DNA of 64,000 bases from an uncultured Gammaproteobacteria bacterium (GCA_964364105.1 CAYILI010000001.1:14465-78464), one strand, 5' to 3'. Shown: positions 13,458 through 64,000, counted from the stretch's first letter. The notes: a model not told the origin generated them from the sequence alone. Translations and numbers: made by a program.

Positions 13458-15425
13458 TTACAAGCTTAGTTCAATTTCTTTATCCTGATCCAGTATAAAC
13501 TTTTGCTTTTGTTTACCATTCAATTTAATCGTATATTCATCTTCAGCTGTCCCCGGCTGTTTTTGAATCATCACTGGAAGAGGTGAGCCTTTTTCTACTT
13601 TAAATGGAAGAGTATATTCAAGAGTAAGTTTTCCAATTCCCAGAGGCCTTACCGTTAAGAATCCTTCGAAAACTGTTTTTCCAAACTCTTCATAAGTTGT
13701 CATTTTTACTTCTGATCCAGAGGAATCTTTAAGCTTAGCGCCTTTTGGCACATAAACCCTGAACCAGTTTCTCCATGGAGCATTAAGACAAAGGCTGTTC
13801 TCGGCTTCTAGATTACAGTTAGAAGGTTTATGCGGATTTCTGTAGTTAACAGTAACTTTTTTAGTAATGACTCCATTTCCGCCAACTGTATACTCCTGTA
13901 AAACACTCTGGTCTACGAATAGGTTAGATTTCGCTCCTCCAAAGTTAGCTTCATTAAGATGGAAATAGTCACCTTCAAAATCTCTAATTTGCCCAGTCGC
14001 ATTTACTGCTGAAAGCCCTTCCATAGCATCTTTATTTTCTAGGCTAAATAGGATATGCTTCTGACCAATCTCTGAGAACATTGCCTGCATAAGCGGTCCC
14101 CAATATTGCTTTGGTGAAGATTGAAAAGCTTTATTCATAATCGCAAGCATAAGATCTCCTATGATACTTTTCCTGTCTGATCGAATATATTGGACTCTGA
14201 TTCCAGCAAATTCTTCCAGCTCATAAATAACTTGCGGACAATCGCATCTCTCGTCAATTTTGGTTGTGTAAGTCTGACCATTTACCTGAACGTCTCCTAG
14301 AATTTCCATTGCAGCGACCAATGCATGTGTATCTATTGCGATAATCCCATCTACATCTACATATTTATCTGCTTCTCCATAAAGATCTCTAAATTCTTTC
14401 ATAGACTCCTGGAAATCAGGAGAAAGATTGCTATCGCGAAGATTAAGCACTGGCACTTTTGGAAGATATTTTAAGATAGGCTCTGGGGCCTTTTCCTTAC
14501 CTGAGATTGAATTATCCAAAACATAAATATCTTCTGAAGAATCCACTTTAATTACACCTTTATTAATTCTAAATATGGCGTAGGCTGTAAGAAATCCTCC
14601 AGTAGGCCTGAGCTCTTTGTCATTCTGGAAAAGCACAAAGTATTTCTTTTCTTCTTTTTCTCCAAGAAGCTGCGGAAGAACTTTGATAAATGGACTTGCG
14701 TCTTCTATAAATTTAGTCCCGTCCGTTGCTAAGGTTCTCATAGTCGTCATGCCGTTTCTAACTTTTCCTCCTGCTATAAATGCCGGATAGTCATTTGGAT
14801 TAACGTGATCTATTTCTTTTTGGGCCAGTTTTAGAGACTTTGCAATATCATCAATTCTAGGAGTAACTTTTCCCATAGTTTGAACTGCTGTCTCAATTCG
14901 CTGCTCAGCTGATCCCCCAACAAAACTTCCCTGACCTTTAAGTCCTAAAACGTCTGCATAAGGTTCTACAGACTCTACGAAAACATCAGCTGCATCAAGT
15001 CCATAGAATCCAGCGTTAACCATGTGTCTTGCATCGTTATAGTAAATATTTGGTCCTGGAATAAATCTCATTACCATTAAAAGATTTAATTTCTTCTGAG
15101 TATCTTTTAAGGCTTCACGTGTTTTTTTAAGTTCTTTACCTGTCGCTTCTATGTCCTGCTTCTTAAGCGCATCAACTGTGGCATTAACCTGCGCGTAAGT
15201 TTTCTTAGCAGAAAGATAAGTCAAGAATCCTGGAATTATAATTAGAACGATAAAAAGCATGAAAACTACAAGAAGCCCAATTCCTACTTTTTTATTCTTA
15301 ACTTTGCCAAGTTTTAAAAACCTCGATTTCAATTCTAGGCGCGAAGTTTGGGATTTTGCTTCTGGGTTAGGAGTTGTTTTTACGGGTAAATCAGAGCTTA
15401 GCTCAATCTTTTCGAATCCATCCAT
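13458..15425 (-). CDS. Large membrane-anchored extracytoplasmic protein (655 aa), possibly DUF4012-like
   Basis: Single TM (IGLLVVFMLFIVLIIIPGF) and a long coiled-coil/soluble domain. Lies immediately upstream of the priming sugar transferase, the usual neighbourhood of DUF4012 proteins. The family assignment is not verifiable here. Confidence 0.4.
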   Translation of the reverse strand: MDGFEKIELSSDLPVKTTPNPEAKSQTSRLELKSRFLKLGKVKNKKVGIGLLVVFMLFIVLIIIPGFLTYLSAKKTYAQVNATVDALKKQDIEATGKELKKTREALKDTQKKLNLLMVMRFIPGPNIYYNDARHMVNAGFYGLDAADVFVESVEPYADVLGLKGQGSFVGGSAEQRIETAVQTMGKVTPRIDDIAKSLKLAQKEIDHVNPNDYPAFIAGGKVRNGMTTMRTLATDGTKFIEDASPFIKVLPQLLGEKEEKKYFVLFQNDKELRPTGGFLTAYAIFRINKGVIKVDSSEDIYVLDNSISGKEKAPEPILKYLPKVPVLNLRDSNLSPDFQESMKEFRDLYGEADKYVDVDGIIAIDTHALVAAMEILGDVQVNGQTYTTKIDERCDCPQVIYELEEFAGIRVQYIRSDRKSIIGDLMLAIMNKAFQSSPKQYWGPLMQAMFSEIGQKHILFSLENKDAMEGLSAVNATGQIRDFEGDYFHLNEANFGGAKSNLFVDQSVLQEYTVGGNGVITKKVTVNYRNPHKPSNCNLEAENSLCLNAPWRNWFRVYVPKGAKLKDSSGSEVKMTTYEEFGKTVFEGFLTVRPLGIGKLTLEYTLPFKVEKGSPLPVMIQKQPGTAEDEYTIKLNGKQKQKFILDQDKEIELSL

Positions 15426-15431
15426 TAATAT

Positions 15432-15468
15432 ATGATACTAGGTCACAAACTGTCATGTCAAATTGACA
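15432..15468 (-). promoter_or_regulatory. Candidate sigma70-type promoter (TTGACA-18 nt-TATCAT) giving a near-leaderless mRNA for the 13458-15425 gene
   Basis: The minus strand reads TTGACAtgacagtttgtgacctagTATCATatattaATG. The -35 sits inside the palindrome TGTCAAATTGACA. Confidence 0.3.
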
Positions 15469-15509
15469 AAATGTGATATGGGAGGTTATAAATCAAACTA
15501 AATTGAGAG

Positions 15510-16175
15510 TTAGAGGGCGCCTTTGCCGGAGACCATTGCACCTGGAGTTTTCATTATTATAGATATGTCATATGCAATTGATCTCTTTTTAACATATTCT
15601 GCGTCCATTTTAATTCTTTTATCAAAGTTTATTTCCGATCGCCCGGAAACCTGCCAATATCCAGTTACACCGGGTCTAACTGAAAGTACTATTTTTACAG
15701 GCTCCCGAGTTTCAGGATATCTTACCTGCTGGTCACGGAGCTCATCTGGATAGTATGCACGGGGTCCCACAAGACTCATATCACCTTTTAAAATATTAAA
15801 AAATTGTGGAACCTCATCGAGAGAATGCTTTCTGATGAAATGCCCGACATTTGTGATCCTTGGATCATCCTTTAACTTATAACTTCCTTTTTTGTAGTCT
15901 CTATAAAGCTCTGCAAATTTAGGGTTTTCGCGCAAAAGTTCATGAGCGTTTTCGATCATTGAACGGAATTTATACATCTTAAAAAGCTTACCGTTTTTTC
16001 CAACTCGCTCAGGTGTATCAGCCAAAACTGGCCCTTTAGAATCAAGCTTAATTGCAATAGCGACCAAAACAATTACGGGAGAGAAGATAACGATAAGAAC
16101 CAAAGACAAAACTATATCGATAAGTCTTTTAAATAACTCATACAAGACACTTTTTCTGACTTCAATAATTGGCAT
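15510..16175 (-). CDS. Polyprenyl-phosphate sugar phosphotransferase (bacterial sugar transferase, WbaP/PglC C-domain type)
   Basis: Single N-terminal TM, then KMYKFRSM...PGVTGYWQVSGRSEI. This is the PF02397 signature. Confidence 0.85.
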   Translation of the reverse strand: MPIIEVRKSVLYELFKRLIDIVLSLVLIVIFSPVIVLVAIAIKLDSKGPVLADTPERVGKNGKLFKMYKFRSMIENAHELLRENPKFAELYRDYKKGSYKLKDDPRITNVGHFIRKHSLDEVPQFFNILKGDMSLVGPRAYYPDELRDQQVRYPETREPVKIVLSVRPGVTGYWQVSGRSEINFDKRIKMDAEYVKKRSIAYDISIIMKTPGAMVSGKGAL

Positions 16176-16180
16176 ATTTT

Positions 16181-16249: not shown

Positions 16250-17323
16250 TTAGGTAAGATGTTCGTGAGGAGTTCCTGCTAGACTCTCGACTAATTTTTT
16301 AATTTTAGGAACCGATGATTTAGGACAAACTAAAACAACATCTTCTGTGTTAATTACTAGCATTTCAGAAAGATCGATTCCTACAGTAAGCTGATTAGTG
16401 TAGTTAAAAACAAGACTATCTCTTGAATCTTCTACCATAACTTTTCCTTTCGTAACGTTCTCGTCAGCTTTCTCGCTCAATGCCTCCTTTAGCGCTTCCC
16501 ATGCTCCGATATCGCTCCACCCTATGTCAACTGAAATAACAGAAATCTTACTTGTTGTAAATTTCTCAAGTATTGCATCATCAAAGCTAATTTTTTCCAA
16601 CGCTGGATAAATCTCATCCAGTGATTTTTCAAAGCTTGATGAATCAACTATTTTCATAAGCTCGGTATACATTTGTGGCGCAAATCTTTCAAACTTTTCA
16701 ATTAAATATGCAGGAGTCGTGACGAAATATCCCAAGTTCCAAACATAGTGTTCGTCTTGGAAAAAATCTTCTGCTTGAGATAATTTGGGACGATATTTAA
16801 GCTTTTTAAATTCAAGCGATTTCAAACCTCCCTCTTCCCGCAATTCATCTCCGCAATAAATCCATCCCACATTCTGATTAGCAAATCTTGGTTTTTGCCC
16901 TATAAAAACGAAGTCAGATTTTCCTTCTGTTATAGATTTCTCAGCCATTCGGAGTGCCCTTTGGAAAATCTTAACTTCCCTAACCATGTGATCACTCCAA
17001 ATAATAGCCATCGGTTCATTTGGAAATCTTTTATTAATTATGGCCGTTGTTAGTCCAATCGCAGGCCCGACATCGCGCATTTCAGGCTCGAATATAAAAT
17101 TCTCCTGGGGTATATCTGGAAGCTGATCTATCACAATATCTTTGTATCTTTTTCCAGTTGCCACATAAATATCAGAAGGATCAAACTCGGGCTGAAGTCT
17201 GGCAACCGCTTCTTGAAGTGTTGATTTATCGCCAATTAATTTTCCAAACTGCTTTGGAGTATTTTTCCTCGAAAGAGGCCAAAGCCTTGTTCCTACTCCT
17301 CCTGCAAAAATAACTACCTTCAT
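16250..17323 (-). CDS. manC: Mannose-1-phosphate guanylyltransferase (GDP-mannose pyrophosphorylase, ManC/CpsB-like, without a PMI domain)
   Basis: MKVVIFAGGVGTRLWPLSRKNTPKQF N-terminus. Confidence 0.75.
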   Translation of the reverse strand: MKVVIFAGGVGTRLWPLSRKNTPKQFGKLIGDKSTLQEAVARLQPEFDPSDIYVATGKRYKDIVIDQLPDIPQENFIFEPEMRDVGPAIGLTTAIINKRFPNEPMAIIWSDHMVREVKIFQRALRMAEKSITEGKSDFVFIGQKPRFANQNVGWIYCGDELREEGGLKSLEFKKLKYRPKLSQAEDFFQDEHYVWNLGYFVTTPAYLIEKFERFAPQMYTELMKIVDSSSFEKSLDEIYPALEKISFDDAILEKFTTSKISVISVDIGWSDIGAWEALKEALSEKADENVTKGKVMVEDSRDSLVFNYTNQLTVGIDLSEMLVINTEDVVLVCPKSSVPKIKKLVESLAGTPHEHLT

Positions 17324-17401: not shown

Positions 17402-18553
17402 TCATAAATTTGTATTCTTTTCTAAGAATTCTTCCAAATTTTTCTTAAAGTTTTTATAAGAAAATCTCTCCGAATTCCTTACTATGTCAGCAGTATTATA
17501 TAGTCTTTCATCGAATCTTTCCAATACCCTATTTAACGATTCAGGGCTTTGTTCCGAGAAAAACTCACCAGTTACCCCTGTTATTACTATGTCTAGTGCC
17601 CCTCCATTTTTAAAAGCTATTACAGGTTTTCCAAACAATTGCGCTTCTGCCATTACGAGTCCGAAGTCTTCATTTCCTGGAAAAATTAAAGCTTTGCAAT
17701 TTTTATAGTAATACCTAAGCTTCTCGTCTGTCAATTCTCCAAGAAACTGAATATTCTTATTTGAGCGTTTTTTTAAAGCTGACATCATGGGTCCTCCTCC
17801 AATTATTTTTAAAGGAAGTCTATTCTGATTAAACGCTTCGACAGCTAAATCCACTCGTTTATAATTACTAAACCGGGACATTCTGGACACTAAAAGAAAA
17901 TAATCATTTTTTCTTTTTTTTATATTTTTTGGCTTATCTATCATTAAAGGCGGAAAAATTATTTCACTGTCTCGGTCATAATATTTTTTAATTCTATTTT
18001 TTACTTCTGAGGAAATTGCAATCATGTGATCTGGTCTTTGAGAAGCCATCCTGTCCCAGTTTTTTAAATATTTAATAGAACCCTGAGCCAAAAATCTAGT
18101 AATAGGATTTGGGAAATACTCATCATAACCACTCCACAAATATCTTGTAGGCGTAAGACAATAACAAATGTGGACTGTGCCTGGATTTGTAATTATTCCT
18201 TTTGCTGCTTCACTTGTAACTGAGATTACCAGGTCATATTCATCGAATGAAAAATGCTCAAAAGCTATTGGCATAAAAAGCGCCAAGAGCTCATTATACT
18301 TACGAAGAGCCGAAGCAGATTGAAGAAAAGAGGTATTCACCTCAAACTCTTTTGCCCAAGAACTCCCTTCCTTACTATAAACTGAGGTATACAAAGGAGC
18401 TTCTGGGAAAATTTTATGCAGTGCTAAAAGTACTCTTTCTGCCCCGCCCCACTTATTTACTCTGTCATAAACGAGCGCTACTCGTAATCTTCTCGAATGA
18501 CTCAAATTACTATCTAATCTATTCGAATTCATCATCCCTCTCCGATAAATCAA
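17402..18553 (-). CDS. Glycosyltransferase family 4 (GT-B)
   Basis: VNKWGGAERVLLALHKIF and the C-terminal E.FG..MAEA motif. Confidence 0.7.
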   Translation of the reverse strand: MIYRRGMMNSNRLDSNLSHSRRLRVALVYDRVNKWGGAERVLLALHKIFPEAPLYTSVYSKEGSSWAKEFEVNTSFLQSASALRKYNELLALFMPIAFEHFSFDEYDLVISVTSEAAKGIITNPGTVHICYCLTPTRYLWSGYDEYFPNPITRFLAQGSIKYLKNWDRMASQRPDHMIAISSEVKNRIKKYYDRDSEIIFPPLMIDKPKNIKKRKNDYFLLVSRMSRFSNYKRVDLAVEAFNQNRLPLKIIGGGPMMSALKKRSNKNIQFLGELTDEKLRYYYKNCKALIFPGNEDFGLVMAEAQLFGKPVIAFKNGGALDIVITGVTGEFFSEQSPESLNRVLERFDERLYNTADIVRNSERFSYKNFKKNLEEFLEKNTNL

Positions 18554-18932
18554 TGTCTTTGAAATTAGGATTGATTATTCTTCTATAGCGAATTTTAGTC
18601 CCTCGAAAATTAACAATAATTGCGAGCGGCAGATTGGTTTGTTTTAAATAGGACAATGCTTGTTTGAAAAATTTTGGAGAATAATGCTGCTGAGCTTTTA
18701 CTTCAAGAATTAATAAATCTTCTACTATGAAATCAAGAAAGTATCTCCCGATACTTTGACCATCATATTCAAGCTTAACTGGAACCTCCCTTTTAAATGA
18801 AAGGCTATTTATATTTAATTCCTTTTCTATCGCTCTCTGGTAGTATTTTTCTAAAAGAGCGGAACCCAGTTCGTTGTGAACTTTAAATAAAACCCCCATG
18901 GTCTTGTAGCTTAATTTCGGAAGAACCAGCAT
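18519..18932 (-). CDS. GxxExxY-family (PD-(D/E)XK-like) small protein
   Basis: LGSALLEKYYQRAIEKEL...FLDFIVEDLLILEVKA...LAIIVNF matches the GxxExxY family pattern. Overlaps the upstream GT4 gene by 35 nt. Confidence 0.55.
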   Translation of the reverse strand: MLVLPKLSYKTMGVLFKVHNELGSALLEKYYQRAIEKELNINSLSFKREVPVKLEYDGQSIGRYFLDFIVEDLLILEVKAQQHYSPKFFKQALSYLKQTNLPLAIIVNFRGTKIRYRRIINPNFKDIDLSERDDEFE

Positions 18933-18953
18933 ATTAGGATATATTCGATTTTA

Positions 18954-20066
18954 TTAGATACTATTCGAAAAAGTATTGTAGACCCGAAGGGTCTGCCGGG
19001 CAGTTTTTTCCCATGAATATTTTTTTACTTGCTCATATCCTTTTTTAATTAACTTCTCCTTTTCCGAAGTTGATAAATTTAAAACGTGTTTCATTTTTGA
19101 AAGTATATCATCACTTTTAAATTGATCAAAATAAATAATTGAATCTCCAAATACCTCTCTATGGACTGGAATATCTGAGGCTAAAACCAAACATTCATTT
19201 TCCAAAGCTTCAAGAGGCGGGAGACTAAAGCCCTCCATCAAGCTTGTTCTCACCAAAGCATTTGCTCCCCTGTAGAGCTCTGACAACTTTTCATCACTTA
19301 CATTTTCTAAGAAAATAACTTTATCATTTCCCATATTTTTCTTAACATGTTCTTTTAGTTTTTTATATAAAAAGTCATTACTCCCGACAAACACCAAACG
19401 AAGTGTTGGATCTTCCTTTACTAAAGATTTAAATGACTCCAGAAGAAGTCCTACATTCTTATGCTGAAAAACATTTCCAACATACAAGAAATAATTTTTT
19501 ATTTTCTCTTCTTTCTTATTGGAAACCTTCATATCATCAGCAGCTTCATAAATCACTTCAATCTTAGACCTATTAGTTTTCAAGGTGTCCATGATATCTT
19601 TTCGTGTAAAGTCAGAAACTGCAATTATTTTTTTCGATACTCGTGCTGCATTTGCGACAACAATTCTATATGCGATTACTTTAAATCCTAAAAGCCAAAG
19701 CGGAAGAGTAGATGAGGCACCGCTTACAAAATGATGAAAAATTAAATCATGAATTGTCACAACATATGGCTTCCTGTATAAAACAGGTATGCTGAAATAT
19801 GGAAAATGCATTAGATCTACTTTTTCTTTTTTTATGATTCCAGGAAATCTTAATTGTTCCTTAATCGAGTGCCATTTAAGATTTGCGGCTACAATCTTCC
19901 ATTCTTTGTTTTTTATTTTTTCTTCAACTTCTTTTTTATCAGACTTTAAAACAAACAAAACATAAGAATTATTTTTATCAATCTTTGATAAATTTATAGT
20001 TAAATTTCTTATGTATCTTCCAACCCCTGTTTGACTCCAAAGCCTTCCATCAATTCCTATTTTCAT
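18954..20066 (-). CDS. Glycosyltransferase family 4
   Basis: MKIGIDGRLWSQTGVGRYIRNL start and a C-terminal EGFSLPPLEALE motif. Confidence 0.75.
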   Translation of the reverse strand: MKIGIDGRLWSQTGVGRYIRNLTINLSKIDKNNSYVLFVLKSDKKEVEEKIKNKEWKIVAANLKWHSIKEQLRFPGIIKKEKVDLMHFPYFSIPVLYRKPYVVTIHDLIFHHFVSGASSTLPLWLLGFKVIAYRIVVANAARVSKKIIAVSDFTRKDIMDTLKTNRSKIEVIYEAADDMKVSNKKEEKIKNYFLYVGNVFQHKNVGLLLESFKSLVKEDPTLRLVFVGSNDFLYKKLKEHVKKNMGNDKVIFLENVSDEKLSELYRGANALVRTSLMEGFSLPPLEALENECLVLASDIPVHREVFGDSIIYFDQFKSDDILSKMKHVLNLSTSEKEKLIKKGYEQVKKYSWEKTARQTLRVYNTFSNSI

Positions 20067-20173
20067 GCTCCTTCGCTCCTTTTCAATATTATAAATCTAA
20101 ACATACCGTTAAAATAGCCGAAACAATTCTAGCTTCGGACGCATGACCCTTCCGTAATTTTAATGAAGGCGGG

Positions 20174-21079
20174 TCATACAGTTTTTTTTCTTTTTGCTAA
20201 AAATAATTTAGTATCAATTCCGAGATATACCAACCAATTAATAATAAAAGGATATTTTCTAGCGTAATGTTTTTTATAGAAAATCTTCATAGTTGAGTAA
20301 AAATATCCCAGTGATTTATTTTTCGTAGACTTATCTGCGCCAGAATTCTCCTGACTATGTTTTTTAATGCCAGAGGAAACTCCCTTAACATGCAATATTT
20401 TTACTTGTGGAACATACATAACTTTAAACCCGGCTTTTTTTGCGCGAAAACACAAATCAATATCTTCTCCATAAAGAAAATAATCTTCATCAAAATATCC
20501 AATTTTCTCAACCATTGATTTTCTAATAAACATAAACGCTCCCACCACACTGTCAACCTCATGGGTTTTTGACATATCTCTATCTGTCAAATGATAAAGT
20601 CTATCGTTTTTAAAAAAGAAATGTAAAAAAGATGCAAGTGGAGTTGGAAAACCCCTGTGAGATGCGGCGTCAATTGAGCCATCCGCCTTCTCAATCTTGG
20701 AGGATGAAATTCCAACGTCCGGGTTTTTTTCCATAAAATCATAAATATATGAAAGGGTCCCACGCGGAACTTCTGTGTCAGGATTTAATGTCAAAATATA
20801 CGGTGAGTCTGATTTTCTTAAAACTAAATTGTGTGCTTTTCCAAAACCTAAATTCTCTTTATTAAAAATAAAATTAAACTGCGGAAATTTTTTCTTAGCT
20901 TTTTCTGCGCTTCCATCAGATGAAGCATTATCGACAATATAAACTTCAAAATCTAATTCTTGCTTGATTTTTCTTAAACTCCCCAAACAGCTAATTAAAT
21001 ATTCGCTAGCATTATAGTTAACAATTGAAATTGTAAGTTTTTTCATATTTCTTATGACACTAGCGTTGCTCCTTTCCAA
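20174..21079 (-). CDS. Glycosyltransferase family 2
   Basis: ISIVNYNASEYLISCLGSL...VDNASSDGS, and a DxD region. Confidence 0.8.
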   Translation of the reverse strand: MERSNASVIRNMKKLTISIVNYNASEYLISCLGSLRKIKQELDFEVYIVDNASSDGSAEKAKKKFPQFNFIFNKENLGFGKAHNLVLRKSDSPYILTLNPDTEVPRGTLSYIYDFMEKNPDVGISSSKIEKADGSIDAASHRGFPTPLASFLHFFFKNDRLYHLTDRDMSKTHEVDSVVGAFMFIRKSMVEKIGYFDEDYFLYGEDIDLCFRAKKAGFKVMYVPQVKILHVKGVSSGIKKHSQENSGADKSTKNKSLGYFYSTMKIFYKKHYARKYPFIINWLVYLGIDTKLFLAKRKKTV

Positions 21080-22235: not shown

Positions 22236-22299
22236 CCCGTTAGAATTTTCATTTTTCTCAATCATAATTAAATGCTCCCGTAGAAATTACTAACGGGAT
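22234..22299 (-). repeat. Intercistronic inverted-repeat element J2 (ATCCCGTTAG-AATTT / AAATT-A-CTAACGGGAT)
   Basis: mRNA sense: TGAATCCCGTTAGTAATTTC-(loop)-GAAAATTCTAACGGGATGAAAATA. Runs from the stop at 22300-22302 to the probable ATG at 22235. Confidence 0.55.
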
Positions 22300-36519: not shown

Positions 36520-36525
36520 TAGGAT

Positions 36526-40712: not shown

Positions 40713-40728
40713 TAACAACATATAAAAT

Positions 40729-45719: not shown

Positions 45720-45728
45720 ACTTACTAT

Positions 45729-47781: not shown

Positions 47782-47795
47782 AATTTCAATTAGTT

Positions 47796-48788: not shown

Positions 48789-48870
48789 TTCGGATTACTT
48801 GGTATAATTTAGCATATTTATTTGAAACTTTAAAGTGTTTCCAAATTTAATTCATGTTCAATAGAACTAA

Positions 48871-49734: not shown

Positions 49735-49737
49735 CCC

Positions 49738-51802: not shown

Positions 51803-51814
51803 TAAATACGATAC

Positions 51815-53417: not shown

Positions 53418-53512
53418 TTATTTAGTATGGACAATATTATTGCATAAAAAGCTTTTTCCTAAAAGAATTAATTCAACACTTTTAAAATAACTCATATAGT
53501 CTTTACTAAATG

Positions 53513-55940: not shown

Positions 55941-57271
55941 AAATCTCTATAAAGAATAACAGCCAGAAAACTTAATGAAAAAATTCCAATTAAAAATAAA
56001 TAGTTGAGAGAAAATATTTGTTTTTTAAATTTAATGTTTGGAAAAAATAATGGTAAAAGAGTTAAGCTAGACAGAATTAAAAATCCTCTAAAAGCAGCAA
56101 ATGAAAATCCAAACATATTAGTCCACGTAAGTTCCAGGAGCGAAAGACTTAAAAATAAAATAAATAAGAATGTAAGAAGTATATTTTTATTAAAGTATTC
56201 CCTTATAAAAATTGCTAAAGAAATTGCCAGAAACGGATAAAATGGATATCTATACCAACCATGTCCCGGCTCGTTTGGAATAGCAAAAATGAATACTCCA
56301 AGGTAAGCAAATAATCCCAAAATAATAACAAAATTTTTTTTAAAATCTTTAGCTAAAAGAAGAAAGAAAGATATCCATCCGAAATATATCCACCCGTCAA
56401 TCATGTGCCTATCGACTAAGAAAGGCTCTTTAAAAAGCGCGTATACACTATTAAATGTCAGATCATATCTTTCTATCTGAAGCTTCCATAAACTCACGAA
56501 CAAATCCCAATCATAATAATATCCGTAAGCAATATATCCTAGGAAAAAAGCCAAAACTATTCCAAAAACAGCAATCGACTCTTTATATTTTTTAGAATAA
56601 ACTAAAATAGAAATTACAGCTACGCTTGCAGCGATCCAAGGAACTTTAGAAATAATAAGAAGACCACACAAAAGGGAAACTATTACAATATAAATTCTTT
56701 TCTTATTCTTTATATATTTTATCGTAAATAAAAGCGCAGTTAAGAATCCCGGAATGAAAAAATTCTCGTTCTGAACGATCCTGGATCCAATCGCAACAGT
56801 TGGAATAATCGCATAAATAAAACTTGCAAGAAGAGCGGTTTGTTTATCATAAATTTCTTTTACCAGAAAAAATAAAACTCCTATTGATATTACACCAAGA
56901 AGAATTGCAAGCGGACGAATCCTTCCAACATCAACATCATACATATCATCTACCCCATTTAAAAGAGCAAATGAACCTGCTACGATTCCAAAAAATGGTG
57001 GATGCTCTAGATATGGTTTTACAATCCAGAAAGCTGCACCTTTATAAATTAGATGTTCTCTTTCAGAATCTATATACTGCGGATGCGAAGACCAGGACTT
57101 AGGAGTCCCCTCCTGAATCAGATTTATTCCAAGCCATGTCCAGGCAAACTCATCCATGGTAGCACCAAAACGGGGCGTTATCGAATAATTATGAACTCGT
57201 AAAACTAGCCCTATCAATAAAATTGATGCAAGAATAATAATTGTTTTTCTTTTTAAAATTTCAGTCACCAT
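55937..57271 (-). CDS. Polytopic GT-C-type membrane glycosyltransferase (ArnT/PMT-like, 444 aa)
   Basis: About 12 TM helices. The first extracytoplasmic loop is rich in D/E and aromatic residues. Confidence 0.45.
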   Translation of the reverse strand: MVTEILKRKTIIILASILLIGLVLRVHNYSITPRFGATMDEFAWTWLGINLIQEGTPKSWSSHPQYIDSEREHLIYKGAAFWIVKPYLEHPPFFGIVAGSFALLNGVDDMYDVDVGRIRPLAILLGVISIGVLFFLVKEIYDKQTALLASFIYAIIPTVAIGSRIVQNENFFIPGFLTALLFTIKYIKNKKRIYIVIVSLLCGLLIISKVPWIAASVAVISILVYSKKYKESIAVFGIVLAFFLGYIAYGYYYDWDLFVSLWKLQIERYDLTFNSVYALFKEPFLVDRHMIDGWIYFGWISFFLLLAKDFKKNFVIILGLFAYLGVFIFAIPNEPGHGWYRYPFYPFLAISLAIFIREYFNKNILLTFLFILFLSLSLLELTWTNMFGFSFAAFRGFLILSSLTLLPLFFPNIKFKKQIFSLNYLFLIGIFSLSFLAVILYRDL

Positions 57272-58002
57272 TATTTATAATAATTTAGAAATCTTAATCT
57301 ATAAAATACCGCTAATGTATCGACAAGCGTCAAAAAGGATATTTTCCAGAAGTTAGTACTAGTTACACTTCCTTGTTTAAAAGTTAATTTTATAGGAGCC
57401 TCTATTATTTTCGTATAACCTAACATCCTTGCTACAGCAAGAACTTCAACATCGAACGCAAACGCTTTAACAATTATTTTTGGGAATACTTCCTTCGCTG
57501 TTTTTCTTCTAAAGAATTTAAGCCCAACCTGAGTATCTCTAACACTAAGCCTGAAAAGTAGCTTAATAAGACTTCTATATCCCCAGGATAATATTTTTCT
57601 ACTTAACGGATACTGAATAATAGAGTCCGGATGAAGCTTACTTCCTATGACTATATCTGCCTTATTCCATTCCATCATATTTAACATGAGCGATATTTCT
57701 GAAGGACTTAGATCCATACCAGCATCTATAAATCCGATTACGTCTCCCTTTGCCTTTTCCACACCAAGCTTTATCGCAAATCCTTTACCTTTATTTAATT
57801 CGTAGCCGAGAGGAATAACCTTACTGTTTTTAATGTGCTTTAATTTTTCAAATGTTTGATCTAAAAATCCATCAACAACAACTATTATTTCATACTCAGA
57901 TGTTATCGAACTCAATGCTAAATTAAGACTTTTTACATCCTCTGTTATTGTTTTTTCCTGTTTGTAAGCAGGAACTATTAAAGAAATAAAATTAGCAGAC
58001 AT
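57271..58002 (-). CDS. GT2 glycosyltransferase (polyprenyl-phosphate sugar synthase-like)
   Basis: ISLIVPAYKQEKTI...YEIIVVVDGFLDQT. Confidence 0.8.
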   Translation of the reverse strand: MSANFISLIVPAYKQEKTITEDVKSLNLALSSITSEYEIIVVVDGFLDQTFEKLKHIKNSKVIPLGYELNKGKGFAIKLGVEKAKGDVIGFIDAGMDLSPSEISLMLNMMEWNKADIVIGSKLHPDSIIQYPLSRKILSWGYRSLIKLLFRLSVRDTQVGLKFFRRKTAKEVFPKIIVKAFAFDVEVLAVARMLGYTKIIEAPIKLTFKQGSVTSTNFWKISFLTLVDTLAVFYRLRFLNYYK

Positions 58003-58007: not shown

Positions 58008-58277
58008 TTATTTAAGGCTAAATTTGAACTCATTTATTTTTAAATAATACAGTACTAAAGAAATCATTAGCAATACCGACGAGAAAATTGAAACATAGAT
58101 AATCTGACTGAAAGTTGAGTGGAAAATCCACATTAAAATTATCTGAACAAACGCAAATAAAAGCGTGATTAAAAATACTTTTGTTTTTTTAATAGAGAGA
58201 AAAAAGCTGATGAACACATTATTAACGCTATAGATTGTAAGAAATATTCCGAAGAGTCCTAGATATGGGGCAATCAT
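58008..58277 (-). CDS. C-terminal 2-3 TM segment that probably belongs to the upstream Wzx-like flippase (split ORF)
   Basis: The 89-aa hydrophobic ORF starts at ATG 58275-58277, which shares nt 58277 with the TAA stop (58277-58279) of the flippase ORF in a TAATG junction. Confidence 0.4.
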   Translation of the reverse strand: MIAPYLGLFGIFLTIYSVNNVFISFFLSIKKTKVFLITLLFAFVQIILMWIFHSTFSQIIYVSIFSSVLLMISLVLYYLKINEFKFSLK

Positions 58278-59368
58278 TAAGTAATCCCCTCTCCTAAAAA
58301 CAGTGAAACGGTAAAGTTGGAAAACAGGAAGTAAAAACCTGTCATAAAAATTGATGGTACAAGAACAAGAGCAAGGGCAATATAAAAAAGATTGTTATAG
58401 TTTTCTTTATTTGTATGGCGCTTAACAATTAATGGAAACATAGCAATTGGAATTGGTCCAGTAAAATAGAAAATTACTTTTCCAATTAAAGAAAGTCCTC
58501 CGTAAAATCCTGCATCATGTGAATTAAAGAAATGTTTAACAATTAAAACATCCGTTGAAATAAAGGATGATAAAGAAAAGATTGCGATCGACGTAGGAAC
58601 TGCATATAGAGCTATGTCTGACCTACCTATATTTACTTTTTTACTTGCTCCACGAATTACCTTTCTTAGAACCACCAAACTGATCATAAACCCTATTATT
58701 GAAGAGATAATAACAGCGCCTAATGCTCCAAAAACCTTAAATCCTAAAACTATAAAAAGTACGCCAAATGCAAGCTTTCCTATTCCCCCCAACAGATAAA
58801 GGATGCCTAAAAGTTTAAATCTTAACATACTTTGAACAAATGCCATATTTAAAGTCGCAATGTAAAAAATTGCTATTGAAAATCCAACCATAATAACTAG
58901 TCCAATCTCATCAATTCTTAAGAATGACATAATTAGCCCAGACACTAAAACAATCCCAATATTAAGAACTGCACTGAAGATCAGTATGTATTTAAATGCT
59001 TTAATGTAAAATGCTCCAGCTCTTTCATTTTCATTTTTAGAGAAAAATTGCGCCGCGTATCTAACGATTACTGATGACAACGAACTTGCAGGAATTGTTA
59101 CGAGAGTTATTAAAGACATTAGGCTCGCAAATGTTCCGTAGTCTGAATAGCTTAAGCTTCTTGCAAAATAAACATTTAGGATAAATGCAAGAAAACTTGA
59201 TGCAGTAGTTCCAATAAGCACAAAAAAACTCCCAGAAATTAAATCATGCTTTATGCTTCTTCTTATTATTTTTTTTATTTTATCCATTACTTGTTTCAGA
59301 AATCTTTTTGTATACTTCATAAGTTTCCATTGCTGTTTTTTCCCATGTGAATTTTTTAGCATTTTCAA
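58277..59368 (-). CDS. Wzx-like polysaccharide flippase (MOP superfamily). Appears truncated at about 10 TM and continues in the next ORF. The real start is probably the internal Met (MDKIKK) near 59287.
   Basis: The SGSFFVLIGTTASSFLAFILNVYFARSLSYSDYGTFASLMSLI pattern is typical of Wzx/PST-family N-termini. Confidence 0.55.
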   Translation of the reverse strand: MKMLKNSHGKKQQWKLMKYTKRFLKQVMDKIKKIIRRSIKHDLISGSFFVLIGTTASSFLAFILNVYFARSLSYSDYGTFASLMSLITLVTIPASSLSSVIVRYAAQFFSKNENERAGAFYIKAFKYILIFSAVLNIGIVLVSGLIMSFLRIDEIGLVIMVGFSIAIFYIATLNMAFVQSMLRFKLLGILYLLGGIGKLAFGVLFIVLGFKVFGALGAVIISSIIGFMISLVVLRKVIRGASKKVNIGRSDIALYAVPTSIAIFSLSSFISTDVLIVKHFFNSHDAGFYGGLSLIGKVIFYFTGPIPIAMFPLIVKRHTNKENYNNLFYIALALVLVPSIFMTGFYFLFSNFTVSLFLGEGIT

Positions 59369-60347
59369 ATCCCATCTTAATTAGCTTATCTCGTAGATCA
59401 TGGTCTTCAAGAACTTTTTCAATTCCATCTTTAATTGAGTCGATGCTAAGCGGATCAACATAATAAGCCGCTTTCCCCGCTACTTCTGGGAGTGAACCTG
59501 ATTTCGAAGTAATAACTGGACAACCTGACTGCATTGCTTCGAGAATTGGCAGCCCAAACCCTTCATACAGAGACGGCATACAAAGAGCTATGGCTGCATT
59601 ATAAAGTCCTACAAGATCTTCATTTTCAACAAATCCCAGTGAAATAATATTTTTGTTTCTAGCGGCTAATTCTTGAGATTTCTTAAGGTCTTTATTCCAT
59701 AAATTACTTTTGTCATAATCCTCATTTTCAAAAGCTTGTCCCACAATTACAAGCGGATAACTAGTCCGATTTACTGCCTCAATTAACCTTGGGAGATTTT
59801 TATTTGATGTAACATCGCCTACATAAAGCGCAAACTTCTGTGGAAGATTAAATTTCCTTATAATCTCCCGCTTTTTTTCATCTGAAACTGGTCTAAAATG
59901 CTTTCCTGCTGCGAGATATATCACTTTTATCTTAGATTCATTATAATTTGTGACCTTAACAATATCTTTCTTCGAGGACTCTGAGTCGGTAATAATAAAA
60001 TCTGAATTTTTAAGAATTTGTTTTTGAATTTGCCACTTCACTTCGCCTTTTAATCCTGATGGAAAATCATCCCTAAAAACTATTGGAGTTAAATCGTGAA
60101 CTGTAATTATTGTTTTAACAGGCTTTCTTAAAGAAAGTGTTAAAAAAAATGGTTCAAAATATGGATAATGAATTAGATCAATTTTCTTATCTAATTTATC
60201 CCCTCTTTTTGTGAAGACAAACTCATCTTCACCATATTTGTCCAGAAGAGCCTCTTTTAGGTTATTTAGATAAAATCCTGTTCCTCTTACTCTATGCTGA
60301 AGAAAATGACCTGATGTAATAGGAGATATATCAATTGCTACCTTCAT
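59280..60347 (-). CDS. Glycosyltransferase family 4
   Basis: [15 protein letters not shown]...[27 protein letters not shown]. The ATG is supplied by the J3 element. Confidence 0.75.
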
Positions 60348-60411: not shown

Positions 60412-62061
60412 TCATTTCTTAATTTTAATGTATTTATCCCACATAAACAAACAAAATAAAGTGAGTGCGGAAAAAATAGTAATGACAAGTGAGATAGTCT
60501 GGAGTTTGGTACTTTTCAAAACTACTTCAAGAATGTGTTCGCCACTTGGGACTCTTACCTTAAAGATTCCGTCCTTTGTGATTACTGCGGGAACGGTGGC
60601 TCCATCAATCTTTACTATCCAGCCAGGGAAATGGGCTATATTTATTAAAACTTCCCCTTCCCTACTCCCCTTCAAAATAAATTTTTCTTTTGTTACGTTG
60701 CTTGAAATTGGGTTAATCTTAAAACTATTCGATAATACTCTTTCTTTTGCTGTAGGGAGTTTTGCGTTGAAATTAAGCGTGTTAAAAACATTCCCAGGAC
60801 TATTTGTACCATAAATGAAGTTCTCTCTTTTTAGGTAGTACTGATCATCTCTAATGTGGTGGAATGGTGCCTTAATGTAATTTATTGAAAACCCGATAGA
60901 AAACACTATCAGCGATATTGAGATAATTATCCTCAAGTGTTTACTTTTTATTAATTTTTCAGATACTATAAATCCCGCTAAAAAGGATGAAGCTAAAATC
61001 ACAACGCTTAAAAGTCTCCATGGAAATTGAATATAAGAAACAAAAGGAACATTTTTCCAGACAAATTCAGACAAAGGTGTTATTAAAAAAACCGTAAAAA
61101 TAAATATGAACAAGAAGTACCCAATTATATTAATTCTTTTTTTTAAGATAAAAATAAGTAAACAAACTATGACTACTAAAATATTTGCAATACCAATTTG
61201 AAATGACATTTGATCTGGAACATTTATCCCCGAAAAACCATATCCCCAGGAAGAATAAATTAATTTATAGATAACCGGAAAATGCTGGGTTGGATCAAAA
61301 ATTTGAAGCCCTCTGACGTATTTAGTTTCGAGAATTGCAGGCAGCCAAAAAATTGCTGAAAGTCCAGTTCCCAAAACTGAAATAAAAATCGCAGAACTAA
61401 ATTCCTTTAATTTATTTCGAGCATTTTGTTTTTTAATAAAAGACTGAAAAAATGCATATGAAAGAAAAAAAGCAAAAAATACAACCGCCAGGATATTATG
61501 CGCAAGAACGATAAGAGCCATCGAGAATGATGAAAACACAAAATATTTTATTTTTCTTGATTCGAAATATGATTGATATCCCCATAAAAGGATTGGAGCT
61601 AAACCAAGACTCCACACTTCCCCTACAGAACCCCTAACATATATATCTAGGAGATGGTAAGGTGAGTAAGCATAAAAAACAGTGCTAACCAATGCCCCCC
61701 ATTCGCCCCAAAACTTTTTAGTCCATAGATAAAAGAAAATTGACCCTATAATTGTCGCAAAAATCATATTTAACTTTAAAGATTCTATAAAACTAAATCC
61801 CAGTAAATGAGTAAATGCTGCTACATAATTAGGCAGCGGATAAACATAATTAAAAAGTGGAATTCCGTAGCCATTATTAAAGTCTTGTGCCCATCTGGGA
61901 TAGAGTGTTCCTTCGTTTATAGACTTAAAAAACTGCTCAAATCTAAGAACATGGAACTCTCCATCATGAGTTGGCGGAAGTCCGGGTTTCAGAAGAGAAA
62001 TTACAGAAAACAACGATATGAATATTGAAGCAATTAAAAATTTATAATTACTTATTTTCAT
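60412..62061 (-). CDS. Polytopic GT-C-like membrane protein (549 aa)
   Basis: N-terminal PTHDGEFHVLRFEQF...LYPRWAQDFNNGYGIPLFNYVYPLPNY motif followed by about 12 TM helices and a C-terminal extracytoplasmic domain. Confidence 0.4.
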   Translation of the reverse strand: MKISNYKFLIASIFISLFSVISLLKPGLPPTHDGEFHVLRFEQFFKSINEGTLYPRWAQDFNNGYGIPLFNYVYPLPNYVAAFTHLLGFSFIESLKLNMIFATIIGSIFFYLWTKKFWGEWGALVSTVFYAYSPYHLLDIYVRGSVGEVWSLGLAPILLWGYQSYFESRKIKYFVFSSFSMALIVLAHNILAVVFFAFFLSYAFFQSFIKKQNARNKLKEFSSAIFISVLGTGLSAIFWLPAILETKYVRGLQIFDPTQHFPVIYKLIYSSWGYGFSGINVPDQMSFQIGIANILVVIVCLLIFILKKRINIIGYFLFIFIFTVFLITPLSEFVWKNVPFVSYIQFPWRLLSVVILASSFLAGFIVSEKLIKSKHLRIIISISLIVFSIGFSINYIKAPFHHIRDDQYYLKRENFIYGTNSPGNVFNTLNFNAKLPTAKERVLSNSFKINPISSNVTKEKFILKGSREGEVLINIAHFPGWIVKIDGATVPAVITKDGIFKVRVPSGEHILEVVLKSTKLQTISLVITIFSALTLFCLFMWDKYIKIKK

Positions 62062-63175
62062 TTCTTAAGATTTTTTTTGAAATATTTTTAAAATCTTTTA
62101 ATAAATATAATAAGAATCCAATTATTGGTGTGTAAGTTGCAAGAATTTTAATTAAAGGTGTTATTCCAAAATGAGTTCCTAGATACATAAAAGGCACATA
62201 TCTAAGCATCAAACCAAAGGATAGCACAAAACCCAATATCTTAAGTTTCTTATTGTTTGTTAGGGCAATAAAAGTAAAAAACCATATTCCATACCATGGA
62301 TATATTTCTTCTCTTATTGGAGAGAGTAATAACACGATAAGCATTAAAAGTGCACTAGATATGTAAATTTTTTCCCAGTTAATTTTTCTTTTTTTAATTT
62401 TCTGAAAAATATAATAAACAAAAACTGGAATAAGAAATATTGTGGCGTATTTTATAAAAATCGAGATAATTAAAAAACCAAGCGCTAGATAGACTTTTTC
62501 TTTTTTTAAAAAATAAATTGAAAGAATCGCAAAAAACATCATGGAAACATCATTATGTCCTGAAACAAATGTTTCAATTAAAACTAACGGGCTTAAAGCA
62601 AAATATGCTACGTTTTCAGTTTTCCCGGTCAATTTATAAATCAAATATAATATTCCAAAATAAAAAGCCACTACAAAAAGCTTTAAGTTAAATAAAGTGA
62701 AAATAAAATTATTAAATCCCAGTAAATAAGGAAGGCCTGTCATGATCACCCATGAAGGACCATATAATGCCACTTTATTCGCTGCATGGGTAAAGCTTAA
62801 ATATGGATCTCCTAAAAATTCAATTGGCATCACTATAAATGGATTCTCCTGGTACCAGACTAAAATTTTAGCTGTGAAAATATAATTAAAAATGTCATAT
62901 GACAAAATCGCAGGATAAGATAAGAATAAGAAAACCACAGAAAGAATAATGAGATTCATTAGAATTTTTTGATTAATATTTCTTAAGAAGAAAAAATAAA
63001 AGAGAAAAAATACAGAAATAAAAACCACATAAATAATACTTACCAACTCTCTATTGTGATTTGCAAAACCAGTATAGATACTTTCCATGTAAATCAAATT
63101 TAGATCTACAAATAAATATGTAAAAAGAGTAAATCCTAAGAGAAATATCCCGTAGCCTAAAATCAATACTTTCAT
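62048..63175 (-). CDS. Polytopic membrane protein (375 aa), possibly a DUF2029/GT-C-like mannosyltransferase
   Basis: About 10-11 TM helices. No soluble catalytic domain. Context only. Confidence 0.3.
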   Translation of the reverse strand: MKVLILGYGIFLLGFTLFTYLFVDLNLIYMESIYTGFANHNRELVSIIYVVFISVFFLFYFFFLRNINQKILMNLIILSVVFLFLSYPAILSYDIFNYIFTAKILVWYQENPFIVMPIEFLGDPYLSFTHAANKVALYGPSWVIMTGLPYLLGFNNFIFTLFNLKLFVVAFYFGILYLIYKLTGKTENVAYFALSPLVLIETFVSGHNDVSMMFFAILSIYFLKKEKVYLALGFLIISIFIKYATIFLIPVFVYYIFQKIKKRKINWEKIYISSALLMLIVLLLSPIREEIYPWYGIWFFTFIALTNNKKLKILGFVLSFGLMLRYVPFMYLGTHFGITPLIKILATYTPIIGFLLYLLKDFKNISKKILRNENK

Positions 63176-63702
63176 AAAACGCTATTTCTTGTGTTTATCG
63201 AACTTTCTATTATTTCTTTTAATTTTAAATTTGTACGAGTTGAATCTTCCGGATTCCAATCTACCTCCTCTGGCAAATGTTCCCCCAAATGCCCCAGTGT
63301 TTCCATGTGTTTTCTGGAAGCTTCCTTGAGCTTTAGTTCTCGTTCTGAAATATCTTTTCCATTTCTCTTAGCATTTTCAAGGTTAGGATAAATTTTCCCA
63401 AAATATTCATCTGATTTTTTAAGGGCATTTGTCGCAAGTAAATACTGCTTATAATCAAATAATATTTTTGCTTCTACTAAATAATGATCTGATTCCTTAA
63501 GATTGTAGTCGTACTTACCGAAGTCTCCAAAGTAAATATATTTACTTATTTTAGAGATAATTAGCCTAGGCTGATAAAAAAAATTACCCGGCATGTAGGA
63601 AGGGTAAGGAAGTACATAACTTGATTCAGCAAATACAAATCGTGGGATTGTTAAGTTAAGAGAGAAGATTACAAGAAAAATTAAAAGTATTTTCTTAACC
63701 AT
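63172..63702 (-). CDS. Secreted hypothetical protein (signal peptide, 176 aa)
   Basis: MVKKILLIFLVIFSLNLTIPRFVFA signal-like N-terminus. Confidence 0.35.
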   Translation of the reverse strand: MVKKILLIFLVIFSLNLTIPRFVFAESSYVLPYPSYMPGNFFYQPRLIISKISKYIYFGDFGKYDYNLKESDHYLVEAKILFDYKQYLLATNALKKSDEYFGKIYPNLENAKRNGKDISERELKLKEASRKHMETLGHLGEHLPEEVDWNPEDSTRTNLKLKEIIESSINTRNSVL

Positions 63703-64000
63703 TTTTACTATGCCACTGCCAAGCGGTTTTTACAATTGTTTCAATATCTGAATATTTTGCTTCAAAACCTAATTCCCCCCTAATCCTTGATGGATCTGCA
63801 ATAAGTCTGTCTGCGTCCCCGGGTCTTCTTGGACAAGCTTCTACATCGGTAGTTAAACCACTTATATTCATCACTGTCTCAATCACTTCTTTGTTAGATA
63901 CCCCTTTTCCAGTGCCTACATTATAAAAATACCCGCCACTATTATTTAAAACTTTATTAAGAGCTAAAATATGAGCTTCTACTAGATCTAATACATGTAT
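63695..64000 (-). CDS. galE: UDP-glucose 4-epimerase GalE, C-terminal part only. The N-terminus lies beyond the window end.
   Basis: Translated through the window end with no stop: IHVLDLVEAHILALNK...YNVGTGKGVSNKEVIETVMNISGL...CPRRPGDADRLIADPSRIRGELGFEAKY...AWQWHSKN. This matches the GalE C-terminus. Confidence 0.8.
   Translation of the reverse strand: MHVLDLVEAHILALNKVLNNSGGYFYNVGTGKGVSNKEVIETVMNISGLTTDVEACPRRPGDADRLIADPSRIRGELGFEAKYSDIETIVKTAWQWHSKNG

Follow-up and report, generated by a model that had tools for sequence, protein, structure and literature searches.

What is made by a 50-kb glycan assembly locus in which nine large polytopic membrane proteins stand among many cytoplasmic glycosyltransferases (GTs), and on which side of the membrane is it made? 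The question is raised by a 64,000-nucleotide stretch of DNA (GCA_964364105.1, CAYILI010000001.1:14465-78464, entered as an uncultured Gammaproteobacteria bacterium), hereafter the window, in which the locus occupies positions 13458-63886. Judging from the lineage names of homologs, the host is probably an uncultivated ultrasmall Microgenomates bacterium of the Candidate Phyla Radiation (CPR, or Patescibacteria). An earlier note on this DNA, made from the sequence alone, had drawn attention to the nine membrane proteins as resembling GT-C glycosyltransferases and had proposed extracytoplasmic glycosylation from lipid-linked donors. Our analysis indicates that this is probably the main cell-envelope glycopolymer locus of the organism, served by a hybrid pathway that combines two known kinds of machinery.

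Open reading frames (ORFs) are present at the coordinates given in that note, and we name the nine proteins by their start coordinate in the window (aa, amino acids; TM1, first transmembrane segment). The corresponding family alignments are A1 (38249), A2 (23764), A3 (34669), A4 (62048) and A5 (32588), with A6 for a partner protein described below.

22300..23742, minus strand: GT-C of PMT_2 type, 480 aa (PF13231, 31.8 bits; gathering score 26.1)
23764..26997, minus strand: bifunctional protein, 1077 aa; N-terminal half (residues ~1-565) WaaL/Wzy_C-like, C-terminal half (~570-1077) with a GT-C fold
32588..34630, minus strand: GT-C, 680 aa, distant member of the 38249 family (hhalign, A5 against A1)
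34669..36519, plus strand: GT-C, 616 aa, YfhO/PTPS_related-like (homolog domains and hhalign)
38249..40600, minus strand: GT-C, 783 aa, of a CPR family without Pfam coverage
42808..45078, minus strand: GT-C, 756 aa, paralog of 38249 (35% identity over the full length, E 2e-136), with a GGDD motif
55937..57271, minus strand: GT-C of PMT_2 type, 444 aa (PF13231, 56.7 bits; gathering score 26.1), with an MDEF motif after TM1
60412..62061, minus strand: GT-C of YfhO/PTPS_related type, 549 aa (PF10131, 46.8 bits, and PF09586, 36.7 bits, both above their gathering scores)
62048..63175, minus strand: small GT-C, 375 aa, possibly GT87/PIG-M-like (family profile and homolog domains)

All nine are confirmed as GT-C glycosyltransferases by Pfam, predicted fold or profile-profile homology, in agreement with the earlier note. 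Each is polytopic, with 7-19 hydrophobic segments, and both AlphaFold2 (AF2) models (38249 and 23764) contain helical bundles. Together they account for 5,760 of about 16,430 encoded residues, which is 35% of the locus. Three of the nine pass a Pfam gathering score, 22300 and 55937 for PMT_2 and 60412 for PTPS_related/YfhO, and profile links were obtained for 42808, 32588, 34669 and 62048. Searches of Pfam and NCBIfam with single sequences returned nothing usable for 34669, 38249, 42808, 62048 or the two partner proteins, and PDB searches with single sequences or profiles returned no match for 38249/A1, 23764/A2, A3 or A6. An NCBIfam match of 32588 to MmpA (26.7 against 210 bits) was discounted as weak.

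In the 38249 protein an N-terminal bundle of transmembrane (TM) segments, in which GGDD follows TM1, leads to an extracytoplasmic domain that combines an alpha/beta part with a beta-sandwich, and a C-terminal TM anchor completes the chain. Its family comprises 172 detected homologs, and every one with a lineage name belongs to Patescibacteria; a Pfam domain was found in none of the 120 homologs listed. The AlphaFold model, built from a 39-sequence alignment, reaches a pLDDT of 89 and a pTM of 0.87, and the closest solved structure to it is the mycobacterial enzyme AftD, with a strong resemblance of the predicted fold. The alignment of the 32588 family to that of 38249 (A5 against A1) is highly significant (probability 99.6%, E 2e-23, 597 columns). 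None of the three belongs to AftD by its Pfam family (PF11847, GT-C_AftD): the score of 32588 is 14.9 bits where the cutoff is 26, neither 38249 nor 42808 gives a match, and the proteins are 680-783 aa long. Likewise no match to YfhO/PTPS_related (PF09586, PF10131) was found for any of them. The 38249 family is therefore AftD-like in fold without being part of AftD, and 38249, 42808 and 32588 form a GT-C family without Pfam coverage, which is a new detail. In Saccharimonadia, Andersenbacteria and Moranbacteria the 38249-type protein is 1,210-1,259 aa long (loci L031 9932-13711, L033 9971-13603 and L034 9926-13678), because an inserted segment of about 450 aa enlarges the extracytoplasmic domain at the C-terminus.

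Homologs and profiles place the remaining proteins. The 22300 ortholog in the related locus L001 also matches PMT_2. While 34669 itself is without a Pfam match, PF10131 is found in 4 of its 25 homologs, distant homologs carry PF09586 or PF11847, and the family aligns with 60412 (hhalign 96.8%, E 2.9e-10, 491 columns) and with A1 (90%). The 62048 family is large (2,896 representatives). This protein again has no Pfam match of its own, and among 43 homologs GT87 is found in four, PMT_2 in three and ALG3 in one; its profile matches GPI mannosyltransferase 1 in the PDB (E 5.7e-6). These profile and domain matches make 62048 a GT-C, with GT87/PIG-M-like as a candidate subfamily.

An acidic residue after TM1 is a common feature of the set. 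It is conserved in A1 (D48/D49, as a nearly invariant G-D-D directly after TM1), A2 (D604/D605, invariant), A3 (D31, nearly invariant), A4 (D94, nearly invariant together with S92) and A5 (D33, invariant), and the first-loop motifs of the other proteins are MDEF in 55937, HDGE in 60412 and ADWHSWRQAD in 22300. From its place just after TM1 and the basic N-termini of most of the GT-Cs, this acidic loop would lie on the outer face of the membrane.

The earlier note had itself named the result that would overturn its reading, namely a finding that the large membrane proteins are for the most part transporters or unrelated domains of unassigned function and not GT-Cs. Searches with hidden Markov models and profiles gave no such result. 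In favour of such a reading, in which the likeness to GT-C would be superficial, five of the nine window sequences are without an above-threshold Pfam match. Against it, the unannotated proteins are tied by significant profile matches to those with Pfam scores above threshold, A4 has its PDB match to PIG-M, and the acidic residue is conserved in every family. None of the nine is transporter-like, and we reject this explanation as highly improbable.

The 23764 protein carries the only ligase-like element of the locus and carries it fused to a GT-C domain, as the earlier note had stated. Its structure model is of moderate confidence (pLDDT 77) and yields two groups of fold matches. Since the pure GT-C model of 38249 has no WaaL among its top 60 matches, the two groups must come from the two halves of the protein. 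The N-terminal half contains a beta-rich extracytoplasmic insert of about 140 aa, and in the C-terminal half the invariant D604-D605 pair follows a TM helix. Wzy_C (PF04932) is detected in 26 of 32 homologs, and by its predicted fold the N-terminal half is placed in WaaL/Wzy_C. In one genome, GCA_026004395.1 (L003), the counterpart consists of two adjacent genes, encoding 557 aa with Wzy_C and 480 aa. Alignment of the halves to the other GT-C family alignments by hhalign gave no significant match, and the C-terminal half is resolved only by the structure model. Compared with WaaL of Escherichia coli (PDB 7tpj), the arginine of an invariant TVSR motif aligns with that of TQTR (R215) in an hhalign alignment that is not significant. 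Unlike WaaL, 23764 has the GT-C fusion, the beta-rich insert and a Pfam score below threshold, and the lipid A-core acceptor is absent in the Microgenomates lineage. We regard 23764 as only a possible member of WaaL proper.

The two longest members of the 38249 family in this window, here called the 770-aa GT-Cs, are each accompanied by a second membrane protein:

37188..38252, minus strand: partner of GT-C 38249; no Pfam, NCBIfam or PDB match; paralog of 41745
41745..42815, minus strand: partner of GT-C 42808; 29-37% identical to 37188 (alignment A6)

These partners of about 355 aa begin with a TM segment, which is followed by a conserved extracytoplasmic domain of about 160 aa and, at the C-terminus, by three more TM segments. 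Neither gave a sequence match in Pfam, NCBIfam or the PDB; a match to Wzz in one of 33 homologs (E 5.8e-4) was single and weak and was discounted. The position directly downstream of the 770-aa GT-C is covered in 31 loci, and every one of them has a partner homolog there; in two loci (L036 and L038) partner and GT-C are one fused protein, the complete partner forming its N-terminal part, with a consistent topology. We infer from these arrangements that the 770-aa GT-C and its partner form a two-subunit enzyme. It has been speculated that some GT-Cs need a second, acceptor-binding protein (PMC8035078), and the partner protein bears on that speculation. The 37188 gene also contains a perfect 60-bp in-frame tandem duplication (37493-37614, 2.0 copies, 100% match) that doubles 20 residues and is either very recent or an assembly artefact.

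Two GT2-family enzymes are candidates for the supply of sugar donors to the GT-Cs, and both are directly adjacent to a GT-C gene:

31634..32560, minus strand: membrane-anchored GT2, candidate polyprenyl-phosphate-sugar synthase of ArnC/GtrB/CsbB type (PDB, NCBIfam)
57271..58002, minus strand: GT2 without a TM anchor, candidate polyprenyl-phosphate-sugar synthase, DPMS/PpgS-like (PDB, NCBIfam)

In the PDB, 31634 matches ArnC (E 2e-42, residues 2-289) and GtrB sll0501 (1.5e-31), and in NCBIfam it matches ArnC (171.6 bits), PgfS (149.6 bits) and also AglJ. It has two C-terminal TM segments, at about 235 and 267, and adjoins GT-C 32588. The 57271 protein matches the archaeal Dol-P-Man synthase 5mlz (E 1e-12, residues 6-208) and, over its full length, PpgS (43.5 bits, below cutoff), and adjoins GT-C 55937. 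The two enzymes are expected to make polyprenyl-phosphate monosaccharide donors for the GT-Cs. That the GT-Cs use a lipid-phosphate-linked donor is suggested indirectly, by the presence of these two candidates in the locus, and the extracytoplasmic glycosylation proposed in the earlier note thereby gains independent support.

To place the locus among relatives, species-representative genomes were scanned for the 38249 family and the resulting 35 loci, mostly from Levybacteria, Gottesmanbacteria and other Microgenomates, were compared ORF by ORF. A common gene order recurs in about 30 Microgenomates genomes. It runs Wzx - GT2 (57271) - GT4 - PMT_2 - GT2 - DegT ... 770-aa GT-C - partner - 675-aa GT-C and continues ArnC-like GT2 - half GT4 - GT4 - acetyltransferase - GT2 - WaaL/GT-C protein - PMT_2. 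L001, about 87% identical, shares the genes from 32588 through to the DUF4012 gene and recO, and GCA_964452165.1 has the entire 23.7-45.7 kb arrangement including both modules of GT-C plus partner and the plus-strand genes. A cassette at 34669-41715, comprising the YfhO-like GT-C, a methyltransferase, a GT-C plus partner module and an SGNH gene, coincides with a trough in GC content (26-29%). It is missing from the close relative L028, which has other sugar genes instead, and is present in the more distant L004-L006, suggesting cassette exchange within the locus. The cross-genome comparison called for by the earlier note thus reveals a conserved frame with a variable cassette at 34.7-41.7 kb. 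Because the gene order is kept in about 30 genomes, the density of GT-Cs is a trait of the lineage and not a peculiarity of this genome; what had been called unusual is high relative to model bacteria and the norm within Microgenomates.

The rest of the locus is listed here, with GT2 and GT4 denoting glycosyltransferase families 2 and 4, SDR short-chain dehydrogenases/reductases, PLP pyridoxal phosphate and SAM S-adenosylmethionine:

13458..15425, minus strand: DUF4012 membrane-anchored protein, last gene of the locus, beside recO (Pfam PF13196, 82.9 bits)
15510..16175, minus strand: small polyprenyl-phosphate glycosylphosphotransferase, the priming enzyme (Bac_transf 213 bits; NCBIfam EPS_sugtrans/WbaP catalytic domain 250-258 bits)
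16250..17323, minus strand: mannose-1-phosphate guanylyltransferase-like nucleotidyltransferase (NTP_transferase plus ManC beta-helix; TIGR01479 E 1e-66, below cutoff)
17402..22265, minus strand: cytoplasmic GT block of GT4 17402-18553, GT4 18954-20066, GT2 20174-21079 and GT4 21060-22265 (Pfam)
26969..30346, minus strand: GT2 26969-27847, WcaF-like acetyltransferase 27847-28401, GT4 28394-29530 and half GT4 29798-30346 (Pfam, NCBIfam)
36526..37239, minus strand: class I SAM methyltransferase (Methyltransf_11, 64 bits)
40729..41715, plus strand: membrane-anchored SGNH/GDSL esterase or acyltransferase (Lipase_GDSL_2, 71.8 bits; N-terminal TM segment)
within 45114..54769, minus strand: WbbJ-like acetyltransferase 45114, GT4 45729 and SDR enzymes 46969, 47796 and 50891 (RmlD-like) (Pfam, NCBIfam)
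within 45114..54769, minus strand: FkbM methyltransferase 48871, GT4 49738, methyltransferase 51815, GT2 52557 and DegT/RfbH-like PLP enzyme 53513 (Pfam, NCBIfam)
54828..55940, minus strand: GT4 glycosyltransferase (Glycos_transf_1, 146 bits)
58008..59368, minus strand: Wzx-type flippase, interrupted (Polysacc_synt_3/Polysacc_synt)
59280..60347, minus strand: GT4 glycosyltransferase (Glycos_transf_1, 111 bits)
63172..63702, minus strand: DUF5667-like membrane-anchored protein (PF18915, 25.4 bits, below the cutoff of 27)
63695..64000, minus strand: 3' end of a gene for a GalE-like epimerase, cut by the window end (translation; GDP_Man_Dehyd C-terminus)

The window is AT-rich (26-39% GC), and of the 45 ORFs across 13458-63886, 43 belong to the minus strand. 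The locus is accordingly transcribed from 64 kb towards 13 kb, with the priming transferase second to last: the earlier note had placed the locus downstream of this gene, whereas 15510 lies near the 3' end with only the DUF4012 gene after it. Since the GalE-like gene is cut at the other end, the locus may extend past 64000. Below 13.4 kb and on the same strand lie genes for RecO, a class-II aminoacyl-tRNA synthetase, MraW, a penicillin-binding protein, three Mur ligases and MurA, so that the adjoining housekeeping genes are as previously described. Searches across the full 64 kb found neither a tRNA gene nor an Rfam family at its gathering score.

Pfam scanning of all ORFs identified one Bac_transf protein (15510), several SDR epimerases/reductases, a DegT/RfbH-like PLP enzyme, the mannose-1-phosphate guanylyltransferase-like enzyme and the Wzx-type flippase (58277). 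Full-length GT4 enzymes number eight (17402, 18954, 21060, 28394, 45729, 49738, 54828 and 59280), to which one N-terminal half (29798) is added, and GT2 enzymes five (20174, 26969, 31634, 52557 and 57271). The many GT4 and GT2 genes reported earlier are thus real, with the counts of about ten and six slightly too high. The other enzymes that had been listed were recovered by Pfam: three methyltransferases (36526, 48871 and 51815), two hexapeptide acetyltransferases (27847 and 45114), the SGNH enzyme and the flippase, which turns out to be split. Its two ORFs meet at a TAATGA junction, and in BLAST comparisons with locus homologs of 419-428 aa 58277-59368 corresponds to residues 1-333 and 58008-58277 to residues 340-419. 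Wzz, Wza/Wzc and ABC-transporter domains were absent from every ORF scanned, as had been claimed.

Some of these genes have features of their own. The DUF4012 gene, between the priming transferase and recO, is the best conserved of the locus relative to L001 (97% identity), and DUF4012 has been reported in Gram-positive exopolysaccharide loci (PMC6744442). The block at 26969..30346 is kept in about 20 loci. Within it the minus-strand gene 29798-30346 encodes an N-terminal Glyco_transf_4 domain alone (177-250 aa). About 20 related loci keep such a gene upstream of a full GT4, so that it is not a broken gene; it may be part of a split enzyme like Alg14/Alg13. Four small minus-strand ORFs between the GT genes, namely PD-(D/E)XK_3 at 18519-18932, GIY-YIG at 29527-29907 and 31346-31603 and a 258-aa ORF at 30343-31119 with a weak HD match, are missing from L001 by Pfam and ORF comparison and look like selfish insertions of nuclease type.

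We propose the following pathway, whose steps derive from family membership, while family or fold, the acidic residue after TM1, the gene order and the fusion and split events are directly observed. The glycosylphosphotransferase 15510 would prime the lipid carrier, and the eight GT4 and three GT2 enzymes would extend a lipid-linked oligosaccharide in the cytoplasm. The activated sugars would be tailored by the products of the epimerase/reductase, DegT-type, methyltransferase and acetyltransferase genes; they appear to include mannose-derived, deoxy or amino, O-methyl and O-acetyl sugars, by NCBIfam and Pfam matches that are all below equivalog cutoffs. After export by the Wzx-type flippase (58008-59368), the WaaL/Wzy-like half of 23764 would polymerise the lipid-linked glycan outside the membrane or ligate it to an acceptor. 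In parallel, 31634 and 57271 would make polyprenyl-phosphate monosaccharides, and with these donors the nine GT-Cs, including the C-terminal half of 23764, would elongate the polymer on the outer face, add branches to it or decorate it, the 770-aa GT-Cs working with their obligate 4-TM partner subunit. The SGNH enzyme may modify acyl groups outside. Much of the surface glycan would thus probably be built outside the cell membrane. There is precedent in Gram-positive wall polymer systems, in which a GT-A synthase of C55-P-sugar acts with a flippase and a GT-C (PMC8035078, PMC5836110), a multi-component logic first defined for YfhO/CsbB (PMC5836110).

A number of observations weigh against a hybrid envelope-glycopolymer pathway. 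Structure models cover 38249 and 23764, and the other seven GT-C assignments come from sequence or profile evidence. The nine GT-Cs are served by only two or three candidate donor synthases, no GtrA-like ORF (a polyprenyl-phosphate-sugar flippase) is present among the 51 ORFs of the window scanned against Pfam, and the window contains no LCP ligase, sortase or other anchoring enzyme. The split in Wzx could be a frameshift, an assembly error or the mark of a pseudogene. The window protein 23764 scores 18.8 bits for Wzy_C against a gathering score of 31.7 bits, and by motif spacing (H/D-N-x9-G-x2-G), without statistical support, its invariant D472 falls at the position of H337 in E. coli WaaL; an Asp in place of the essential ligase His is a lead only. 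Finally, the product of the locus may be a heteroglycan anchored in the wall or to lipid, or else an S-layer or protein glycan, and it may be one polymer or more than one.

This last point leads to the idea of several independent glycan pathways side by side, with a conserved core polymer encoded at 13.4-34.6 kb and variable polymers or decorations at 34.6-64 kb, like the rhamnan and pellicle halves of the lactococcal cwps locus. It accords with the 79-97% identity of the 13.4-34.6 kb genes to L001, with the loss of the 26-29% GC cassette (34.7-41.7 kb) from L028 and with the duplication of the GT-C plus partner module, the 42808 copy following acetyltransferase and sugar-modifying genes of its own and the 38249 copy being followed by a methyltransferase gene. 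The 50 kb contain, however, a single priming transferase, a single Wzx and a single Wzy_C domain, and the genes are co-directional and tightly packed. We hold such a division to be a real possibility while leaning against it, and it is in part compatible with the hybrid pathway rather than opposed to it.

A different order of assembly would have the GT-Cs polymerise the backbone outside, adding one residue at a time from polyprenyl-phosphate sugars in the manner of mycobacterial arabinogalactan or lipoarabinomannan (LAM), the cytoplasmic GTs making a short primer only. AftD is the closest solved structure to 38249, the GT87/PIG-M-like 62048 and PpgS-like 57271 have mycobacterial counterparts, Wzz or another chain-length regulator is absent, and in number and diversity the GT-Cs resemble the Mycobacteriales set. 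Yet eleven cytoplasmic GT4 and GT2 enzymes are many more than a primer needs, the Wzx flippase and Wzy_C domain indicate block-wise export, and the donor synthases, only two or three in number, are not joined by a pathway of the decaprenyl-phospho-arabinose type, which makes this order of assembly unlikely. Less likely still is that the locus serves mainly the glycosylation of proteins (an S-layer protein, pilins or other surface proteins), in which the Wzy_C-like half of 23764 would be an O-oligosaccharyltransferase of PglL/WsaB kind and the PMT_2 proteins protein O-glycosyltransferases. The Wzy_C family does include O-oligosaccharyltransferases, PMT_2 is named after protein mannosyltransferases, and 31634 is closest after ArnC to PgfS and matches AglJ too, both of which act in protein glycosylation; moreover, the organism has no lipopolysaccharide pathway that would supply a WaaL-type ligase with its usual acceptor. 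But no gene for a candidate acceptor protein is present in the locus, nine GT-Cs far exceed what known systems use, and the Gram-positive members of PMT_2/YfhO mostly decorate teichoic acids and wall polysaccharides (PMC8035078).

How does a hybrid pathway of this kind compare with described systems? Loci for capsule or O-antigen of the Wzx/Wzy type share with it the priming glycosylphosphotransferase, many GT4 and GT2 enzymes, sugar-tailoring enzymes, Wzx, a Wzy_C-like domain and a variable low-GC cassette in a conserved frame. They differ in that here Wzz or another polysaccharide co-polymerase and Wza/Wzc are lacking, Wzy occurs only as the WaaL-like half of 23764, GT-Cs take up 35% of coding capacity and the core is conserved across a superphylum-level lineage instead of being strain-specific. 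The mycobacterial GT-C set for arabinogalactan and LAM (Emb, AftA-D, PimE/GT87 and PpgS-Rv3779) likewise applies many different GT-Cs to one envelope glycan and includes a small GT87-like GT-C and a PpgS-like synthase; here, in contrast, the GT-Cs are clustered in a single locus, with no sign of a bound acyl carrier protein or of a pathway to an arabinose donor. In AftD itself (bioRxiv 10.1101/2019.12.22.885152) the TM core is followed by a large soluble extracytoplasmic part, as in 38249, but at about 1,400 aa, with multiple carbohydrate-binding modules and a bound acyl carrier protein, it is longer than the proteins of 680-783 aa found here, of which 32588 has a sub-threshold GT-C_AftD score and 38249 none.

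The Gram-positive multi-component systems (CsbB/GtcA/YfhO, GtlA/GtlB, lactococcal CsdAB/CD/EF and GacI-L; PMC8035078, PMC5836110) resemble the locus in having a GT-A synthase beside a GT-C (here 31634/32588 and 57271/55937), YfhO/PMT_2-type GT-Cs whose first outer loop holds an acidic residue, and a setting within a Wzx-type polysaccharide locus of a monoderm-like organism. They use one to three GT-Cs per genome, whereas nine occur here in one locus; this window lacks their GtrA-type flippase and adds three Pfam-less GT-Cs, an obligate 4-TM partner and a GT-C/WaaL-like fusion. The closest functional analogues are thus these systems and the mycobacterial GT-C set, and the closest structures are AftD and WaaL. 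The components come from known superfamilies; what is new is the Pfam-less GT-C family, the 4-TM partner and the ligase-like/GT-C fusion.

Taken further, these new elements lead us to a more specific and tentative hypothesis, which we regard as possible though rather doubtful: the principal envelope glycopolymer would be mostly assembled on the outer face by a relay of nine GT-Cs that includes two new enzyme architectures. One would be a two-subunit AftD-like 770-aa GT-C whose obligate 4-TM partner may serve in acceptor binding or chain-length control, the other a WaaL-like/GT-C enzyme that couples ligation or polymerisation to glycosyl transfer, with Asp for the ligase His. If true, such a relay would amount to an assembly pathway of its own, characteristic of a major uncultivated lineage.

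In CPR/Patescibacteria it is through the envelope that cells attach to their hosts, and next to nothing is known of its chemistry. Méheust et al. found that protein families enriched in Microgenomates are mainly hypothetical proteins, 14 of 35 being predicted to be membrane-localised (PMC6744442), and full-text literature searches returned neither a description of the locus nor any report of Patescibacteria with GT-C enzymes. Several hypothetical membrane proteins can now be assigned to GT-C and to one conserved locus of about 50 kb beside the cell-wall (dcw) genes. About 17 kb of GT-C genes in genomes of about 1 Mb represent a large investment in extracytoplasmic glycosylation. The Pfam-less family, its always adjacent and sometimes fused partner and the ligase-GT-C fusion offer tractable GT-C enzymology, and the locus opens a concrete genetic route to the surface glycan of this lineage.

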